This document shows positions 17,746-36,678 of a stretch of 38,730 nt of DNA, piece by piece (the first letter of the stretch is position 1; every line of letters starts with the position of its first letter). Both the position numbers and the translations under genes were made by a program. Where the stretch lies: positions 1 to 38,730 of the forward strand of contig CANRDG010000001.1 in NCBI GenBank assembly GCA_947629275.1, written 5' to 3'. Origin of the DNA: an uncultured Clostridia bacterium (GTDB lineage: Bacteria; Bacillota; Clostridia; Oscillospirales; Ruminococcaceae). The notes beneath the pieces are model-generated. The model had not been told where the DNA came from. It worked only from the letters and a program-made list of their open reading frames with translations, and ran no database searches.

Positions 17746-19395
17746 TTACCAAAAGCGCTGAATGATCTTTACACTCGCCGTACCGTTGAAGATATAGTCA
17801 CAAAGCTGTGCCAGACTATCAGGCGCATCATCATGCTGTTTCTTACTGTTTTGATTGTAGGAAAGCAACTGTGCGATAAATTCATCATATTCTTCGCCGC
17901 GGTTTTTATCATTCCGAAAATAGAATTTCATAATATCGGTAGAATATTGTATTATTCTTGACTGCTTGCTTTGAGTTGTAGGCGCACGCTTAGATGTGAT
18001 CCTGATGTGTATACCGAGTTCACGCAAACGGCGGTCAATATCATCAGCATATTCTGTACCGCCGTTGTTGGCTTCAAAGTTTTCGCTGTCCGGCTTATAT
18101 CGCTGAGTTTTGGCAATTATTTGCGGTTGAGTATATGTCTTATCTTTTTGACTAAATACTACGTCGTGAATATATACAGAATTATCGTCGTACACATATG
18201 CAAAAATCATTGAAAGATAATCTCCGCCGCCCCACGCTACATCACACTGCGCTACCTTGCGCGCAGGCTCACAGCTCGGAAGTTCACCGTCATACCAGTT
18301 CATATCACTTTCGTGGAATAGCAATCCCTTTCTTTCGATCGGCTGCTGTAAATACATACAACTAAACGTTAATTCGTCAATATTACTTTTGATCTCTTCG
18401 ATCTTTTTCTTTGTATAGCGGTCGGGGTGGTCGTATTCAAAATTGCTGTGGTGATGTTTATCCCAAACAGGAATTCTTATAAATTCATAGCTGTCGTCAT
18501 TTTCATGTTCTTTTCTCATGCGCGTTAAAGGATCGTGCACCGACCATATTGTGCCAAGCATGATCTGTTTGATATTGTCGCCGATACATCTTGTCGTTAC
18601 TGTGCTGGTATAATCTTCGTACAGAGTATCAAGGCGTTGTTTGTTCCTTGCTACTTCTGCATTTTTTACAAGGTCATCTGTGATAAGAAATTTATTAGCC
18701 CTCGTTCTGCCCGTGATAGATCCGCCCAAGGAAGTTATACCGAGCGTGGGAAAATCGCCCTTTTTTCTGTATGACAAAGTAGCATATTCGGCTGATACAG
18801 TCGGCATACCGTTGGCAAATATATCATTATGGGCGTATTCCGTTGTATCTGTCAGAATTGAACGCAGGCTGTCATACATCATCTTCACCATGCCGTCAGA
18901 ATAAGATATATACATATTTGCCGATTGAGGATATTTTCCTGCAATATAGGCAAGTAAAAACTTAATAAGCGTTGTCTTACCCGTGCCCGGCGGCAGCGAG
19001 ATGCCAATAAAGCTTTTATTCGGATCGTCAATAAACTTCTGTATGCGAGAGATAAGTCCGTGTTTACCTTCCAACACACTGCGGCGCGGCAGCCAGAACT
19101 TTGCCGCAGATGTCCTGTTCCACTCACAAGCGATCATATACATATCAAGGTCATCTGAGGCGGCATACAGTGCAAAATAACGGGCAAGCGTATATGCTGC
19201 CAACGATTTTTGTATATCGTCCGTCGCTGATCTGTTAGTCATACGCATAGCCGCAAAATACCCTGTCTTTGCAGCTTTGATTGAGTATTTGTCTTTATCG
19301 CCGTAAACTTTTAACGTTTCAAGCAGCAGTTTCAAGTTATCGTATTTTTCAAAATCTTTAGATACAGCCAGCTTCAACATTTCGGCATTCGTCAT
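17746..19395 (-). CDS. terL: Terminase large subunit
   Basis: Walker A GISLPPGTGKTT, plus a C-terminal nuclease-like region. Start re-set to MTNAEMLK with SD AAGGAGA. An alternative upstream ATG at 19467 overlaps the recombinase stop as ATGA. Confidence 0.9.
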   Translation of the reverse strand: MTNAEMLKLAVSKDFEKYDNLKLLLETLKVYGDKDKYSIKAAKTGYFAAMRMTNRSATDDIQKSLAAYTLARYFALYAASDDLDMYMIACEWNRTSAAKFWLPRRSVLEGKHGLISRIQKFIDDPNKSFIGISLPPGTGKTTLIKFLLAYIAGKYPQSANMYISYSDGMVKMMYDSLRSILTDTTEYAHNDIFANGMPTVSAEYATLSYRKKGDFPTLGITSLGGSITGRTRANKFLITDDLVKNAEVARNKQRLDTLYEDYTSTVTTRCIGDNIKQIMLGTIWSVHDPLTRMRKEHENDDSYEFIRIPVWDKHHHSNFEYDHPDRYTKKKIEEIKSNIDELTFSCMYLQQPIERKGLLFHESDMNWYDGELPSCEPARKVAQCDVAWGGGDYLSMIFAYVYDDNSVYIHDVVFSQKDKTYTQPQIIAKTQRYKPDSENFEANNGGTEYADDIDRRLRELGIHIRITSKRAPTTQSKQSRIIQYSTDIMKFYFRNDKNRGEEYDEFIAQLLSYNQNSKKQHDDAPDSLAQLCDYIFNGTASVKIIQRFW

Positions 19396-19411
19396 AATTT
19401 CATCTCCTTGA

Positions 19412-19445
19412 CAATAAAAGTGCCCCGAATTTTCGTCCGAGGCAC
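19412..19445 (-). terminator. Intrinsic terminator after the serine recombinase gene, just upstream of the terL RBS
   Basis: On the minus strand: GUGCCUCGGA, a 7-nt loop, UCGGGGCAC, then TTTTATTG. The stem is about 9 bp including G-U pairs. Confidence 0.55.
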
Positions 19446-19463
19446 TTGGCACTGTGTTCATAG

Positions 19464-20216
19464 TCATTTCAGTATAGGCTCATGCTGACCTTTTACCCAG
19501 TCAGCGCCGCCGTATTTGTAAAATCCCCTATAAGTTTTTTCGTTTTCGATAATGCTCTTTATATTGCTTGCATAAAACTGACCGCCTTTTCGCGTGTGAA
19601 AGCCCATGTCGTTTAATTTATTCGCCGTCTGCAAAAGCCCTACACCCTGTGCATGCATTTCAAATATCTTTCTGACTATCTCTGCTTCGCTGTCTTTTAT
19701 AGTCATCACACCGTTTGTAACTTCATATCCATATGGCACTCTGCCGCCGCTGTAGCCGCCCTTGCTTGCTTTTATCTTTCTTCCGCCTGAAGTTCTTTTC
19801 TGAATGTTCACTCTCTCCTGTTCGGCGACAAAAAGTGTGAACGACTTTAGTATTCCCGAAAATGCACCGAAGTCTCCAAAGTTCTCTACAACGCTTATCA
19901 GTTGGACATTTTTCTTGCTGAGAAGCATTTCATAGTAAAAGTATAATTTGATCTCACGGGCAATTCTGTCGCTCTTCGCTACAACGACAGCTTCATACGG
20001 TGGGTTCTTGAATTCGTCGTCATACAGTATCTTGTCAAGAGCAGGTCTGTTATCGCAAACACCGCTTATACCCTCGTCAATGTACCAATCAAGAATATTC
20101 AGGTCGTTCTTTCTGCAATAGTCTTCGATCTGTTCACGCTGCGCATCAAGTCCAAATTTATCTTCACCTGTTTGTCCTGCGGTGCTTACCCGGCAGTAAG
20201 CTATTATGTTTTTCAT
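19464..20216 (-). CDS. Serine recombinase: resolvase catalytic domain plus the 'recombinase' domain, with no zinc-ribbon/coiled-coil domain (250 aa)
   Basis: Start MKNIIAYCRVSTAGQ with SD AAGGAGA. Catalytic motifs YCRVSTAGQ, DEGISG, SDRIAREI and VAEQER are present. The second domain, GGRVPYGYEV...VRKIF...GQHEPILK, ends where large serine integrases continue into the Zn-ribbon. Confidence 0.8.
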   Translation of the reverse strand: MKNIIAYCRVSTAGQTGEDKFGLDAQREQIEDYCRKNDLNILDWYIDEGISGVCDNRPALDKILYDDEFKNPPYEAVVVAKSDRIAREIKLYFYYEMLLSKKNVQLISVVENFGDFGAFSGILKSFTLFVAEQERVNIQKRTSGGRKIKASKGGYSGGRVPYGYEVTNGVMTIKDSEAEIVRKIFEMHAQGVGLLQTANKLNDMGFHTRKGGQFYASNIKSIIENEKTYRGFYKYGGADWVKGQHEPILK

Positions 20217-20241
20217 AAATGTCACTCTCCTTTACAATTAC

Positions 20242-20270
20242 ATTATACTCTAAATAAATGTAAAAGTCAA
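20242..20270 (-). promoter_or_regulatory. Near-consensus sigma-70-type promoter of the recombinase gene
   Basis: On the minus strand: TTGACT (20270..20265), a 17-nt spacer, then TATAAT (20247..20242). It lies 26 nt upstream of the ATG. Confidence 0.6.
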
Positions 20271-20538
20271 CCCCTTTTTTTATATTTTTTCTGTTCACAG
20301 GGTTGAGGAGTAGACGTGGGGACCTCTCAAAAGACCCCCGGGGGGGGTAGCTGTAGAAAGCTTGAATACGCGCTTTTACAGTGCATAGAACAAATTGTAC
20401 ACTTTTCATATAAATTGAGACGACATTTTATGCAAATGTACTATTTTACACTTAATCATAATTAAAATACTAATTTATTACACTTAATTAAAATTAAAAA
20501 TAAATGTAAATTTGCAGAGTAAAGAAAAAAGCTGTGTT

Positions 20539-21150
20539 CTAATCAGTATCATCATGCCGCTCTGCGTTCAATGCCTGCTCACTCTCTTGCAGTAAGCGCT
20601 TCTGTATATCGCTTATATCACCCGATCCGTCGAGCATATCTATCTGCCTTACTATTTCTTCGTCCGGTGTGTCTTTCAAGCCGTAATAATTCTTGGCGCG
20701 AAAAATATAAGCTACGACATTAAGCTTGCCTGCCATGACCATTTTGGCATCGAAAATCTTCAAAAAATCTTTGGCTTTTTTAATAATTTGCGACGTATTG
20801 GGGCTGAACCCTTTTGACCTTCCCTTTTCCCAGTCGATAACAGTCGAATGAGAATAGCCTGTATAAGTGACCATTTCTTCAACACAAGGCGTAATTCCCT
20901 TTTCGGCACACCTGCAAAAATAGCTGTCAAGACGTTCTACAAGTTCCTCGTCGCTCTTTACGCGAGGCATCTTGTAAGCCTCATATGCTTCACGCAGTAT
21001 CTTTTGAAGAAGCGCCTTATCCTCGTCTGTTTCAAATACGCCATCGTAAGAAGTGCTAAAGTTATTGCGACCACCTCTGCCATACAGCGGTCGCTCTTTA
21101 TCAGTAACTATTTCAGCATTTACTTTAAGAACATCATCTTTCTTTTTCAA
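20539..21150 (-). CDS. terS: Terminase small subunit (P22 gp3-like packaging protein)
   Basis: TTG start with SD AAAGGAGA 6 nt upstream. A central HTH-like GITPCVEEMVTYTGYSHSTVIDWEKG and the segment AKDFLKIFDAKMVMAGKLNVVAYIFRAKNYYGLKD match the gp3-type terS pattern. Confidence 0.75.
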   Translation of the reverse strand: MKKKDDVLKVNAEIVTDKERPLYGRGGRNNFSTSYDGVFETDEDKALLQKILREAYEAYKMPRVKSDEELVERLDSYFCRCAEKGITPCVEEMVTYTGYSHSTVIDWEKGRSKGFSPNTSQIIKKAKDFLKIFDAKMVMAGKLNVVAYIFRAKNYYGLKDTPDEEIVRQIDMLDGSGDISDIQKRLLQESEQALNAERHDDTD

Positions 21151-21937: not shown

Positions 21938-22161
21938 GGGAGAAAATATCGATTAAGTTATCGATATTTTCTTCCAAAATTGCTCGGAAGAAAAAATTAT
22001 TTTATCGATTTCTTCTTCCACGAGAAAGAAAATATCGATTAAATTTTCTTTTCTTCTCGGAAGAAGAAATCGAAGTTAATCGAAATTTTCTTCCAAGACG
22101 TTTCTATTTTCAACATTATTCCCTGGAAGAAAAAATCGGACTTAATCGATATTTTCTTTCC
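21938..22161. repeat. Array of five imperfect palindromic ~34-38-bp units (iteron-like; candidate replication origin or multi-operator)
   Basis: Units lie at 21938..21975, 21986..22019, 22022..22058, 22059..22094 and 22125..22161. All have the form GGAAGAAAA-ATCGA-TTAA-TCGA-TTTTCTTCC. Units 4 and 5 plus their right flanks form a ~66-bp direct repeat. Confidence 0.85.
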
Positions 22162-22186
22162 AAGATGTTTCTGTATTCAACAATAT

Positions 22187-24424
22187 TCAACAAGCTTTAA
22201 TTCCCACATTTTTGCCCTCTTTCCAAAAGCCGCCATGTTCTGAAATACGATTAAGAACTGTCTTCTCACTCACGCCCATGTACTCGGCTAAGTCACTTGT
22301 GGTACATTGACCGTTCTCGGCTACGGCATAAAAGGCAGTCTCGACAGATTTCTTCCTGTCCTCTTGGCGCTGCTCGTTACTTTTGCGCTTGTCAAAGTTC
22401 TTTCCCCAAGGTGAGCCTTTGGCAGTTGTTTTCGGCTGCGTACCCTCAAAGCCTAGGTCTTTAAGAGAGCCTGTGTCGTCTATGCGGTGTATCGGGTAGT
22501 CAAACCATAAGTTTATAGGCTCAAACTTCGGAAACTCTCGCAGCGTGCCCTCTACTCGCCACGCCGTGCGACCGCTCATGCCGTGCTTGGCTCTGTCTAT
22601 CTCGTCTATCATCAATTTGTACGACTTAAGCGATAATATCTCTCGTGCCTTTTCCGTCATTACAGATGCAGACTGCATATCGTCCTGCGATAGATCCGGA
22701 TCGCCGTCAAATCGGCATATCCATTCGCGGCAGATACGGCAAGTCAGCTTGTTTTCTTCTTGCTTCTTTAAGCTGTCTGTAATTTCGAGCTCGGCAAAGT
22801 CGAGAAGCGCATCAGGATCGCGCGCGAATACTCCCGAGCCCGAAGCTCTGTCCATAGACCTTTTCGCACCCTGCAATCCCTTAGAGTGATGGTGGCAGTA
22901 TATGACCGCACACCCAAGCTCGTTGCACACGCTGTCAAAGTAATTGCAGAATTTTGACATATGTTCCGCGCTGTTTTCGTCGCCCGTCAGCATCTTGTAT
23001 ATTGGGTCAAAGATAATTGCAATATAGCCGCGCTTTTTGGCACGGTGTATAAGCTTTGGTGCAAGCTTGTCCATGGGCGCACTGTGACCGCGCAAGTTTA
23101 GTATATCTATTTTATCAAAGTTATCGACTTTGTAGCCGAGGGCATCGTATACGTCCTTAAAACGGTGCATACATGATGCGCCGTCAAGCTCCAAGTTTAC
23201 ATACAGCACCTTACCTTGTGCGCAGTTAAATCCCAGCCATTTCTCACCCTCTGCAATAGCTATGCAGAGCGATATAAGCGCAAATGACTTGCCGGCTTTA
23301 GAAGGCCCTGCGACAAGCAGCTTGTGCCCTTGTCTTAGCACACCGTCAATAAGCGGCGGTGCAAGCTTGGGCATATGCTGCCATACGTCGGCAAGGCACA
23401 CTGTGTCGGGCAGATCATCATTGATAGCCGCTATGTAGTCATACCACTCCTGCCAGCTGCGCTTGCCTATGTGACTGTCGACTATAAACTGCTTACGCTC
23501 GCCGCGCTCTATTCCCGGCAGGCGTGAGAGCCTTGACGGATTGCGGCAGCTTTTGTCTACATAAAGCCCGTTCTTGCGGCATACGCCAAAAAGATAGTCT
23601 ACTCGCTTGTGGTACTCGTTAAGATCAGGCGCATCTATATGCACTATAGCGTGCAGGCTCTTGCCGCCTGTATATACAAGCATAGCGACAGGCAGCTCTA
23701 AATCTCTTATAAGCGCGTTCTGCTCTTCAAGCGCCATGTTGTCACTCTCAACAAGCGCGTATCTGTAGTCGGTTACATTCTCGTCTTTAACGCCCCTGCC
23801 GTCAAGAGGATTAAAGCGGATCCATGCGCCTGCCTCTTTTTTGTAGTCGCCAAGCACCGCGCCTATATCGCCGCCGCACTTACGCAGCTCTTTAATAAGC
23901 TCTCCTGCCGTGCGGTCGTAGCTGCCTCTGTTCGGCAAGTGCTTTACAGTGCCGTCGTCGCTCTGCTTTTCCCACGTTTCTGTTACATAGCCGACATGGT
24001 CGTCTTTATCAAACAGCGTTTCGAGATATGTAATTATCTGCTCGGCAGGATTCCACACCGTAGGCTCTTTAACGGGTATGCCCTCGCCTGTCAGCGGCGC
24101 GGAGAGCGTTTCTTCCTCGGCGGTAATGACGTCATTCCAGTCATAGGCAAGCGGCGCAGGGCGTTTGAACTCAAAGCCTCTGTCTTTTGCCATTTGTACG
24201 ATAGTACCTGCCGTTACCGGCGAGGCAGATCCGCCGAAGGTGTTCCACTTGCTCTGACATTCGCCGGCATGAAAGCGACGTGCATCACGCCTCGACCAGT
24301 TTTCCCAGTCGGTGCAGGAGTACCCCTCATGTTTGAGCGCCATACCGACGTTTATCCACTCTTGATAGTCGCAGTCGGCAGGGTCTATGTGGTCTAATAT
24401 ATCAGTAAGTTTAATATTATCCAT
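22187..24424 (-). CDS. Primase-helicase: PriCT-2-like N-terminus + AEP-type primase core + AAA_25/RepA-like ATPase + C-terminal HTH
   Basis: N-terminal W-NVGMALKHEG...W-WS...KW; a primase-like segment VESD...GGKSLHAIVHID; Walker A GPSKAGKSF; C-terminal HTH TTSDLAEYMGVSEKTVLNRI. Confidence 0.75.
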   Translation of the reverse strand: MDNIKLTDILDHIDPADCDYQEWINVGMALKHEGYSCTDWENWSRRDARRFHAGECQSKWNTFGGSASPVTAGTIVQMAKDRGFEFKRPAPLAYDWNDVITAEEETLSAPLTGEGIPVKEPTVWNPAEQIITYLETLFDKDDHVGYVTETWEKQSDDGTVKHLPNRGSYDRTAGELIKELRKCGGDIGAVLGDYKKEAGAWIRFNPLDGRGVKDENVTDYRYALVESDNMALEEQNALIRDLELPVAMLVYTGGKSLHAIVHIDAPDLNEYHKRVDYLFGVCRKNGLYVDKSCRNPSRLSRLPGIERGERKQFIVDSHIGKRSWQEWYDYIAAINDDLPDTVCLADVWQHMPKLAPPLIDGVLRQGHKLLVAGPSKAGKSFALISLCIAIAEGEKWLGFNCAQGKVLYVNLELDGASCMHRFKDVYDALGYKVDNFDKIDILNLRGHSAPMDKLAPKLIHRAKKRGYIAIIFDPIYKMLTGDENSAEHMSKFCNYFDSVCNELGCAVIYCHHHSKGLQGAKRSMDRASGSGVFARDPDALLDFAELEITDSLKKQEENKLTCRICREWICRFDGDPDLSQDDMQSASVMTEKAREILSLKSYKLMIDEIDRAKHGMSGRTAWRVEGTLREFPKFEPINLWFDYPIHRIDDTGSLKDLGFEGTQPKTTAKGSPWGKNFDKRKSNEQRQEDRKKSVETAFYAVAENGQCTTSDLAEYMGVSEKTVLNRISEHGGFWKEGKNVGIKAC

Positions 24425-35345: not shown

Positions 35346-35383
35346 AGCATAAAATTTTTTGAATGTCAATAGGAGGAGTTTTT

Positions 35384-36532
35384 ATGCCTATTTATAAGAT
35401 GACAGGCAAGAAAAACGGCAAGCAGCGTTACCGTGTGCGTATCAACTACACAGACAACTACGGCAAGGCGCATCAGACCGACCGCACTGTTTACGGTCTT
35501 GAAGAGGCAAAAATGCTTGAATATCAGCTTACCAACGACATCAAGCGCAAGAAAGAAACGCCTGCTGCCGGTATGACGATCAGCGATCTCTATGAAGAAT
35601 ATATCAACGCAAAGCGATATGAGGTGCGCGAGACCACTCTTGACAAGAGCGTGCGCATAATCGCGCGATACATCATACCCGAATGCGGCAGCACCAAGCT
35701 GTCGAAGTTTAACGTGGCTTCCGTCCAGAAGTGGAAGATGTACATGGAAGGGCTGAACGTCGGCATCACCACCAAGCGGAATGTCTATGGGGTGTTCCAC
35801 GCGATGATAAACTATGCCGTGAAAATGGAATATATGTCGCGAAACGTGCTGGAGCAGGCTGGTAACTTCAAAGCGCCGCTCGATACCACAGCCACCAAAG
35901 AAATGCAGTACTACACCGCCGACGAGTTCAAGCGGTTTATTGCCGCCGCAAAAAGTGAGGCTGAAGCGGCAGAAGCCAAGGGTGAGCTGTACAAATGGAA
36001 TTTTTATGTATTTTTTAACATCGCCTTTTACACAGGTATGCGCAAAGGCGAAATTAACGCCCTACAGTGGACGGACATCAAGGATGGCAGGATAAGCATT
36101 ACAAAGAGCGTGGCGCAGAAGCTTAAAGGTGCTGACCGCATCACGCCGCCGAAAAATAAAAGCAGCATACGCACTATACAGATACCGTTGCCGCTCATGG
36201 CGGTGCTGGAGCAGCACAAGGAGCGGTGCAGTGCCATTGACGGCTTTGCTGAGAGCTGGTATATCTGTGGCGGTGTGCGCTGCATAAGAGATACCAGCGT
36301 GCAGAAAACCTTGCAGAGATACGCCGAGGCGGCAGGTGTTAAAGCGATAAGGGTGCACGACTTTCGGCACAGCCATGCTTCCCTGCTTGCCAACGAGGGC
36401 ATAAACATACAGGAGATCGCACGTCGGCTCGGTCACGCGAAGATAAGCATGACGTGGGACACCTATTCGCATTTGTATCCGAGAGAGGAAGAAAGGGCGA
36501 TAAAAATTCTGAATAATATAAAAAACGTGTAA
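35384..36532 (+). CDS. int: Tyrosine integrase
   Basis: Start re-set to MPIYKMTGK with SD AGGAGGAG. Catalytic residues are present: R in YTGMRKGE, HDFRH (H-x-x-R), LGH, and Y in DTYSHL. It lies adjacent to the tRNA. Confidence 0.9.
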   Translation: MPIYKMTGKKNGKQRYRVRINYTDNYGKAHQTDRTVYGLEEAKMLEYQLTNDIKRKKETPAAGMTISDLYEEYINAKRYEVRETTLDKSVRIIARYIIPECGSTKLSKFNVASVQKWKMYMEGLNVGITTKRNVYGVFHAMINYAVKMEYMSRNVLEQAGNFKAPLDTTATKEMQYYTADEFKRFIAAAKSEAEAAEAKGELYKWNFYVFFNIAFYTGMRKGEINALQWTDIKDGRISITKSVAQKLKGADRITPPKNKSSIRTIQIPLPLMAVLEQHKERCSAIDGFAESWYICGGVRCIRDTSVQKTLQRYAEAAGVKAIRVHDFRHSHASLLANEGINIQEIARRLGHAKISMTWDTYSHLYPREEERAIKILNNIKNV

Positions 36533-36586: not shown

Positions 36587-36678
36587 TGGCGGAGCAGGAG
36601 AGATTCGAACTCTCGGTCCCGATTAAGGGATTACTCGATTTCGAGTCGAGCCCGTTATGACCACTTCGATACTGCTCC
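36587..36678 (-). tRNA. tRNA-Ser (anticodon CGA), type II with a long variable arm; CCA encoded
   Basis: Folded by hand. Acceptor stem GGAGCAG/CTGCTCC, 3-bp D stem, anticodon stem CTCGA/TCGAG with loop CT-CGA-AA, an 18-nt variable arm, T arm GAGAG-TTCGAAT-CTCTC, discriminator G, and CCA. Confidence 0.9.

Follow-up and report, generated by a model that had tools for sequence, protein, structure and literature searches.

A compact serine recombinase encoded upstream of terL recurs throughout a Clostridia phage lineage and may form an autoregulated, resolvase-like module

The 38,730-nt stretch analyzed here (the window; contig CANRDG010000001.1 of the uncultured Clostridia bacterium assembly GCA_947629275.1) contains a prophage in which a gene for a 250-amino-acid serine recombinase lies between terS and terL, the genes assigned to the small and large terminase subunits. 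We find that this recombinase is the core of a large serine recombinase, consisting of the catalytic domain, the E-helix and the recombinase domain (RD), without the zinc-ribbon/coiled-coil domain, and that it is a regular component of its phage lineage rather than a stray insert. We propose that the gene and its upstream sites constitute an autoregulated, resolvase-like site-specific recombination module, a reading to which we assign a probability of about 40%. The finding carries more weight as a description of a protein family and a lineage feature than as the report of a one-off insertion.

In Pfam, the 250-residue product matches Resolvase (PF00239) over residues 4–154 (82.3 bits; cut-off 23.3) and Recombinase (PF07508) over residues 176–248 (52.9 bits; cut-off 21.1) and matches no zinc-ribbon domain, as an earlier reading made from the letters of the window alone (hereafter the sequence-only reading) had anticipated for a hidden Markov model scan; it has no HTH_7 (helix-turn-helix) match either. 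The motifs from which that reading deduced an intact catalytic core (YCRVSTAGQ, DEGISG, SDRIAREI and VAEQER) are all present, and the core is not degenerate: R9, S11, D83, R84 and R87, together with E132/R135, are invariant in a 29-sequence family alignment (29/29). All sequences in that alignment share a …GxHEPIL C-terminus, the best 120 homologues are all 247–278 amino acids long with the same two domains, and in an exhaustive search of 50%-identity representatives ~90 clusters of 240–290 amino acids, down to ~33% identity, rank before the first proteins of at least 440 amino acids. Conservation of length in ~90 clusters at 50% identity identifies a family and not a truncation, and rules out a truncated pseudogene. 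No open reading frame (ORF) downstream of the gene could supply a zinc-ribbon/coiled-coil domain, and no C-terminal fragment is encoded there.

An AlphaFold2 model of the protein (predicted local distance difference test score, pLDDT, of 81) has the catalytic fold, a long E-helix (residues 119–151) and a helical C-terminal domain. Its best Foldseek matches are large serine integrases (SPbeta 9dxf and 9dxd; Bxb1 9iu2), and its RD superposes on that of the Listeria integrase (4kis) at 2.1–2.8 Å over ~112 columns. The large serine recombinases (A118/LI, TP901-1, Bxb1, SPbeta SprA and CcrB), which share the catalytic domain, E-helix and RD fold with the window protein, are its best matches throughout, at 30–34% sequence identity, in PHROG 95, in the NCBIfam CcrB model and in the Foldseek matches 9dxf, 9iu2 and 4kis. 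By contrast with these enzymes, which are typically ~400–700 amino acids long, the window protein is half the length, lacks the zinc-ribbon/coiled-coil domain and scores far below the family cut-offs (122.9 versus 900). In sequence and profile comparisons it aligns with no more than the N-terminal half of the integrase models (positions 7–230 of 542 for CcrB; 87–343 of 651 for PHROG 95), and its predicted sites are short palindromes over its own promoter rather than an attP. Thus, the 250-amino-acid protein belongs neither to the large integrases nor to the small HTH_7 resolvases and invertases, although some databases label the family ‘DNA invertase’. Nor is it likely to be the integrase of this prophage: a tyrosine integrase sits at the tRNA-Ser junction, where the sequence-only reading had placed one, and the serine recombinase sites are intact within the prophage, both of which argue against an attP × attB role. 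The literature yielded no description of the family or of its layout, in agreement with the earlier statement that no characterized recombinase of this zinc-ribbon-less architecture was known from a terS–terL junction.

The sites themselves provide the second body of evidence. The pattern TTACANTTA-N10–20-TAANTGTAA occurs exactly twice in the 38.7 kb of the window (20232–20263 and 20478–20509), with 0 occurrences expected by chance, and the proximal 32-bp palindrome overlaps the recombinase promoter. In the 16 loci examined, locus-specific 9-mers are found solely upstream of the recombinase gene, in two clusters of equal polarity (→ ← ←) at about −70/−50/−28 (proximal) and −300/−277/−245 (distal). 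The half-site varies by locus (TTACG, TTACA, TTGCA, TTGAA or ATACA) but is identical at all positions within one locus, and this concerted change points to the recombinase as the protein that binds it. Palindrome lengths are unequal between the proximal and distal sites (29–35 bp), which recalls the unequal subsites of res, and the central dinucleotides of the two window palindromes differ (AT versus GT). Relatives can carry variable, reverse-strand genes (cargo) upstream of the recombinase. Of 77 non-redundant loci, 37 have a reverse-strand consensus promoter overlapped by the distal cluster, and 3 have a forward promoter in that region; some relatives carry the proximal cluster only. In the window, the reverse promoter has decayed and cargo is absent, and both sites are retained. 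From these patterns, we infer that the recombinase binds the palindromes and represses its own promoter and, where present, the cargo promoter. We propose that the proximal palindrome serves as recombinase-binding site, auto-operator and recombination site. No half-sites occur between or beyond the cargo genes of the 16 loci, which, together with the 116 unrelated clusters formed by the first cargo genes, leads us to reject integron-like cargo capture.

The predicted recombinase promoter matches the sigma-70 consensus at 11 of 12 positions and is the top site in the 2.5 kb scanned. Most relatives likewise have a near-consensus promoter here; under a strict pattern, an equivalent consensus promoter lies at −51 to −81 in 42 of 77 non-redundant relatives. 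At the other end of the gene, a hairpin of 12 pairs (19447..19418), followed by TTTTATTGT, has a folding energy of −17.6 kcal/mol, versus −8.2 ± 2.6 for shuffled sequences. This hairpin is intergenic, because the 549-amino-acid terL product aligns with its homologues end to end and only the ATG at 19395 has a Shine–Dalgarno sequence (AAGGAG); the alternative start at 19467, which would have made the hairpin coding, lacks a ribosome-binding site and is ruled out. Possession of its own predicted promoter and terminator-like hairpin supports the sequence-only view of the gene as an autonomous unit with a near-consensus promoter. However, 47 of 54 non-redundant relatives have a hairpin and T-run abutting the start of terL, and the hairpin is a feature of the phage lineage, not of the recombinase module. 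The unit resembles the morons of lambdoid phages (in the HK97/HK022 definition) in being what appears, from its sequence, to be an independent promoter–gene–terminator unit among late genes, in which case terL would have to be reached by read-through or antitermination. Morons, however, are sporadic and diverse, whereas this slot holds a serine recombinase in ~93% of relatives. Some of the hairpins have further features. A GC-rich 12-bp hairpin lies ~35 nt before the terL start in L010, L011, L017, L040, L183, L195 and other loci, and in many relatives (GAGCGCC...GGAGGGCGCT TTTTTATG) the terL Shine–Dalgarno sequence falls within the 3′ arm, a placement that suggests regulated termination or translation of terL.

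Comparison across phages establishes how regular the arrangement is. We gathered 165 loci with the recombinase family from IMG/VR, GTDB genomes (mostly Oscillospirales, with other Clostridia) and public assemblies. In ~100 of them, comprising nearly all with at least 45% identity and enough downstream DNA, the recombinase is followed on the same strand by terL (0–5 kb) and then portal, and a gp3-like terS lies 1–4 kb upstream of the recombinase. The sequence-only reading took terS and terL to be normally adjacent and the recombinase to be wedged between them; in these relatives, the two genes are always 1–5 kb apart with a variable region between them, and their separation is a trait of the lineage. 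The notion of a foreign wedge fares no better in an empty-junction test based on an alignment-based search for loci chosen by terL alone. Among the 68 such loci with enough upstream DNA, 63 (~93%) encode a serine recombinase on the same strand as terL and no more than ~4 kb upstream of it, 8 of them of the 250-amino-acid type and 55 of small Resolvase+HTH types from several lineages. Hence, what is conserved is the presence, upstream of terL, of a serine recombinase of one type or another.

The recombinase modules are exchanged as units between near-identical phages. Members of a ~57-kb phage clade that are >90% identical from ~75–165 nt before terL onward carry either the 250-amino-acid type or small types, and the closest terL relatives of the window phage (60–61% identical) lack the 250-amino-acid family, having in the same place a ~92-amino-acid ORF and a classical 187-amino-acid Resolvase+HTH_7 recombinase. 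Across loci, recombinase identity (55–73%) is often well above terL identity (~30–40%), and the two are incongruent (73%/38% in L001; 43%/51% in L145). An ORF of ~92–97 amino acids precedes many of the small recombinases (L166 6933–7211, L186 6566–6841, L187 6226–6519); it matches nothing in Pfam or PHROG and is presumed, from its sequence, to encode a degenerate helix-turn-helix protein. Palindromes such as CAGATATATCTG occur in both divergent promoters of those loci. Cultured phages show the same design. In C. difficile phage phiCD38-2 (NC_015568.1), a small serine ‘DNA invertase’ (40521–41090) is the last gene of the linear record, followed by terS (29–736), and in C. perfringens phage CP51 (NC_021325.1), a small serine ‘DNA invertase’ (38534–39094) is likewise last, followed by terS (35–781); a ~200-amino-acid tyrosine recombinase lies just upstream of each. 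These phages and most metagenomic relatives have small serine recombinases that occupy the equivalent place with respect to the terminase genes and share the promoter-plus-palindrome design, but the small enzymes are Resolvase+HTH proteins of ~185–195 amino acids, often with the ~92-amino-acid partner, and are ~30% identical to the window protein. Unlike the window protein, the recombinases of L166 and L186 do fit the small HTH_7 resolvase/invertase type (~180–210 amino acids).

The cargo, by comparison with the recombinase slot, is highly variable: it consists of small reverse-strand genes whose first members fall into 116 unrelated clusters among 265 loci. The cargo proteins match almost nothing in PHROGs and Pfam, and neither they nor the recombinase match a defense system in PADLOC. 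In one relative (L186 4601–5416, minus strand), the cargo is a Bro-N + ANT antirepressor accompanied by small proteins that we judged by eye to be ribbon-helix-helix-like; such antirepressor cargo, found in some relatives, recalls the immI region of P22.

Between the two site clusters lies a conserved sequence, element X. In many loci, it has the form GGGGGATAT-N~25-GGGCGGGGTGAG-N~10-(ACCACAC/CCGC)-AAAAATAAAAAG and keeps a constant distance of ~85 nt upstream of the −35 hexamer; a pattern-only scan for the related form GGGGGATAT...GGGGTGAG...AAAAATAAAAAG found 120 IMG/VR stretches. Where enough downstream DNA is available, 89 of 110 X loci have a recombinase starting 140–1400 nt downstream, of the 250-amino-acid type in 26 (nearly all ~140 nt downstream) and of small types in 63, with terL and portal after the recombinase and terS 2–3 kb upstream. 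The window variant shares 77% identity with the corresponding region of L166, a locus with a small recombinase, and this homology stops at the −35 hexamer. X is located between outward-facing promoters or after terminators and is for this reason probably not transcribed; taken with its conservation, X is probably an untranscribed cis-element. It belongs to no Rfam family and has no cultured-phage match in a DNA search. An intrinsic terminator was rejected by inspection, as the conserved hairpin leads into an A-run. We put the odds that X is a packaging signal (pac/cos), its most likely identity, at roughly even, another phage cis-signal also being a candidate. Two independent contigs start at X (L331 at C followed by GGGGGATAT, and L032 as adapter joined to GGATAT), which is weak evidence for a physical DNA end. 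In L032 (IMGVR_UViG_3300045988_013871, positions 1–39), a Nextera transposase adapter, TCGTCGGCAGCGTCAGATGTGTATAAGAGACAG, is fused directly to GGATAT of X. Just upstream of X, some loci also have GC-rich short tandem repeats, with units such as CCTGGTCCC, CAGCAGGACCCTGACGC and CACAGAGCCC (L010 1–140; L011 at about −290 to −160 from the recombinase start; L041; L042 1–140; L055 1–190), and several contigs break there.

How might such a module work? Recombinase dimers would bind the 30–34-bp palindromes through outer half-sites of ~9 bp that are specific to each locus. Binding at the proximal palindrome, over the gene’s own strong sigma-70 promoter, would repress expression, and this autoregulation would keep the enzyme scarce. 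In relatives, the second cluster, with the same polarity, appears to overlap a divergent promoter that would drive the variable cargo. Large integrases choose their partner sites via the coiled-coil domain; in an enzyme without this domain, partner selectivity would probably come from extra sites, as in the res sites of Tn3 or Sin. Recombination between two copies of the site region on one molecule could then circularize injected DNA that is terminally redundant or convert multimers into monomers, and the downstream hairpin would stop transcription of the unit from entering terL. A resolvase-like reaction is favored by the single site region in each genome, by the matching polarity of the clusters, by the lack of sites flanking the cargo or the unit and by the fixed orientation. 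That recombinases of either type persist next to X and the terminase genes suggests a role tied to genome ends, for which cyclization of terminally redundant DNA or monomerization would be the natural candidates. We infer that a resolvase linked to packaging, one of several roles listed in the sequence-only reading, is the best explanation.

Two known systems have parallels with this module. First, Tn3/γδ resolvase with res, and the Sin and β recombinases of Firmicutes plasmids, use multiple, unequally spaced sites between divergent promoters, an arrangement that implies autorepression and that the predicted sites here resemble; they, too, have one site region per replicon, as expected for resolution. 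The window enzyme, whose activity is a prediction, differs in that its DNA-binding domain is an RD rather than HTH_7, it is encoded in a phage late region rather than a transposon or plasmid, and a conserved, unrelated element separates its site clusters, which are 160–290 bp apart. Second, the lox site of P1 is close to pac, and Cre/loxP, like the window module, comprises a phage-encoded recombinase and a single site beside a start of packaging (presumed for the window), separate from the system that maintains lysogeny. Cre, however, is a tyrosine recombinase, and for the window both the position of pac and terminal redundancy are presumptions. Terminally redundant P1 DNA is cyclized either by RecA or by Cre–lox (PMC3973344).

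Several observations weigh against a packaging-linked resolvase. First, true empty junctions, which the sequence-only reading proposed to look for, do exist: 5 of the 68 terL-selected relatives have no recombinase at all, and none lies in the 2.6-kb terS–terL gap of the cultured phage Maintenon, whose terL is 37% identical. These cases indicate that the function is dispensable. They are rare, however, and the slot is usually filled, so that the uniform occupancy which that reading took as evidence against an inserted cassette is in part what we find. Second, the phage has general recombination genes of its own, for a Sak4-like P-loop protein and RusA, and general recombination could circularize the DNA. 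Third, packaging requires concatemers, which resolvase activity late in infection would break down. Fourth, the identity of X is a guess, to which contig starts contribute two contigs; X lies 0.2–3 kb from terS, whereas pac is usually inside or beside terS, and the 57-kb phage clade lacks X yet keeps the recombinase position. Finally, the promoter palindromes of the small modules may belong to the ~92-amino-acid ORF rather than to the recombinase.

Of the alternatives, the one we take most seriously, while judging it unlikely, is that the recombinase is mainly a regulator that represses a divergent promoter pair, for immunity or moron control as in the P22 immI region inside a late operon, with recombination secondary or lost. 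The sites overlap the −35/−10 elements of the recombinase promoter, and in relatives the reverse promoter is overlapped in the same way; the antirepressor cargo and its ribbon-helix-helix-like companions in some relatives would fit, as would the presumed helix-turn-helix partner of the small modules with its own palindromic operators. But a regulator would not be expected to keep the catalytic Ser, Arg and Asp invariant throughout the family, with the whole catalytic domain retained in ~90 diverged clusters, or to persist in the window with both sites after loss of the reverse promoter and cargo. Nor does regulation alone account for the exchange of one serine recombinase for another, unrelated one in this slot.

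Two further alternatives have poor prospects. One, the leading idea of the sequence-only reading, is a self-mobile cassette in which the recombinase inserts and excises itself, with or without cargo, at the terS–terL gap. The unit is indeed present, absent or replaced among close relatives, with sharp homology edges (on the left at the −35 hexamer or up to ~60 nt upstream of it; on the right ~75–165 nt before terL) and the incongruent identities described above. Nevertheless, a second site and flanking direct repeats are both lacking, and the far side of the unit or cargo has no site either; the small enzymes that also occupy the slot are of the resolvase/invertase type, which does not normally transpose; and swapping at conserved flanks is an ordinary outcome of mosaic phage recombination. 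The other is that recombinase bound on both sides of X acts as a packaging accessory, aiding recognition or cutting by terminase or holding genome ends together, much as HNH proteins assist the terminases of cos phages. Conservation of the place beside terL and X for either recombinase type, and site clusters flanking X in the window and many relatives, would suit such a role. Loci with the proximal cluster only and the X-less 57-kb clade do not, a strong sigma-70 promoter and terminator would uncouple expression from that of the late genes, and we know of no precedent for a recombinase in this capacity, which also counts against it.

A DNA invertase that flips X, a promoter or cargo as a phase switch, another of the roles raised from the sequence alone, is very improbable. 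The database label and the palindromic nature of the sites are in its favor, but orientation is fixed (reverse promoter in 37, forward in 3, of 77 non-redundant loci), both clusters share polarity and the palindrome centers differ; inversion was rejected on the first two of these grounds. Finally, a decayed large serine integrase that has lost its C-terminal half, as matches confined to the N-terminal halves of integrases could suggest, is already contradicted by the conserved 247–278-amino-acid length and C-terminal GQHEPIL of close homologues, by the ~90 diverged clusters and by the absence of a C-terminal fragment downstream.

Returning to the resolvase-like module, a bolder form of it is conceivable, if doubtful: a large clade of gut Clostridia phages would couple packaging to recombination, with X as pac/cos and, beside it, a serine recombinase of either of two unrelated architectures acting on terminus-flanking sites to circularize or process genomes. 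The 250-amino-acid enzymes would then be the first natural ‘mini’ large serine recombinases to use accessory sites rather than a coiled coil for partner choice.

The features of the window are collected in Table 1. On the minus strand, the terS-like gene is followed by a 313-nt spacer, the 250-amino-acid ORF, a 68-nt spacer, terL and portal. The terL and terS assignments rest on weak yet consistent family matches (Terminase_6C, GP3_package and PHROG 606), and the terS homologue in L166 exceeds the Pfam cut-off. A search of PDB sequences with the terL profile gave no informative match from which the packaging type (cos or pac) could be inferred. The tyrosine recombinase and tRNA-Ser mark the prophage end. 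In a DNA search of cultured phages, the terS–terL region had no match, and its intergenic DNA contains no Rfam RNA family, the only hits being weak chance matches in the iteron-like region at 21.9–22.1 kb. An 81-amino-acid ORF in another frame (20164–20409, minus strand) overlaps X, the promoter and the recombinase start and is most likely not a gene.

Table 1 Coordinates of the recombinase gene, its predicted sites and signals, and associated genes in the window
Feature	Position	Strand	Remarks
terL, large terminase gene	17746..19395	−	Start at 19395
Terminator-like hairpin + T-run	19410..19447	−	Between the recombinase stop codon and the terL ribosome-binding site
Recombinase gene, 250 amino acids	19464..20216	−	ATG start; GTG-extended form reaches 20225; protein ends ...GQHEPILK at the RD boundary
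Proximal palindrome, TTTACATTTA-N14-TAATTGTAAA	20231..20264	.	Centered on the −10 hexamer; reaches the Shine–Dalgarno sequence
Predicted sigma-70-type promoter of the recombinase gene, TTGACT-17-TATAAT	20242..20270	−	Consensus scan
Element X, window variant, ACCCCCCCCGGGGGTCTTTT...CTCAACCC...AAAAAATATAAAAAAAGGGG	20266..20347	.	Ends at the −35 hexamer
Third half-site of the distal cluster, TAAGTGTAAA on the minus strand	20445..20454	.	Cluster polarity becomes → ← ←
Distal palindrome, TTTACATTTA-N14-TAAGTGTAA	20478..20510	.	246 bp upstream of the proximal palindrome; ~28 nt after the terS stop codon; repeat families D6 and D7
terS, small-terminase-like gene, P22 gp3 type	20539..21150	−	
Tyrosine recombinase	35363..36532		Adjoins tRNA-Ser (36587..36678)

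Between RusA and a primase/D5-like gene, positions 21938–22190 contain dense direct and inverted repeats with a unit of about AGAAAATATCGATTAAGT, including two pairs of arms (I3 and I6) of 18–19 nt with 100% complementarity. This array looks like replication-origin iterons and is probably the ‘adjacent repeat region’ that the sequence-only reading suggested the recombinase might control; it contains none of the recombinase half-sites and lies beside the primase gene, and that suggestion is not borne out. Among the relatives, the terL ORF is 889 amino acids long rather than the expected 555 in L065, L067, L071, L072, L074, L082 and L086, which may reflect an intein or inserted domain. Prophage contigs of this Clostridia-type phage lineage also occur in bins labeled Akkermansia muciniphila, Treponemataceae, Muribaculaceae and Paludibacteraceae (L114, L120, L131 and L147), probably through binning contamination.

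There are several implications. Even if the recombinase is merely an autoregulated accessory gene, annotation is corrected, in that these proteins are probably not integrases and terS and terL are not neighbors in this lineage. If our reading holds, it would define an abundant, uncharacterized family of compact 250-amino-acid serine recombinases whose cognate 30–34-bp sites can be read from each genome, yielding a panel of orthogonal enzyme–site pairs for trials in genome engineering. It would also show how a large-serine-recombinase core functions when it lacks the zinc-ribbon/coiled-coil domain, the usual determinant of synapsis and directionality. More broadly, it would reveal a conserved and previously undescribed layout in phages of gut Clostridia, in which terS is followed by variable cargo, X, a serine recombinase, a hairpin and terL, and which may link genome circularization or resolution to packaging.

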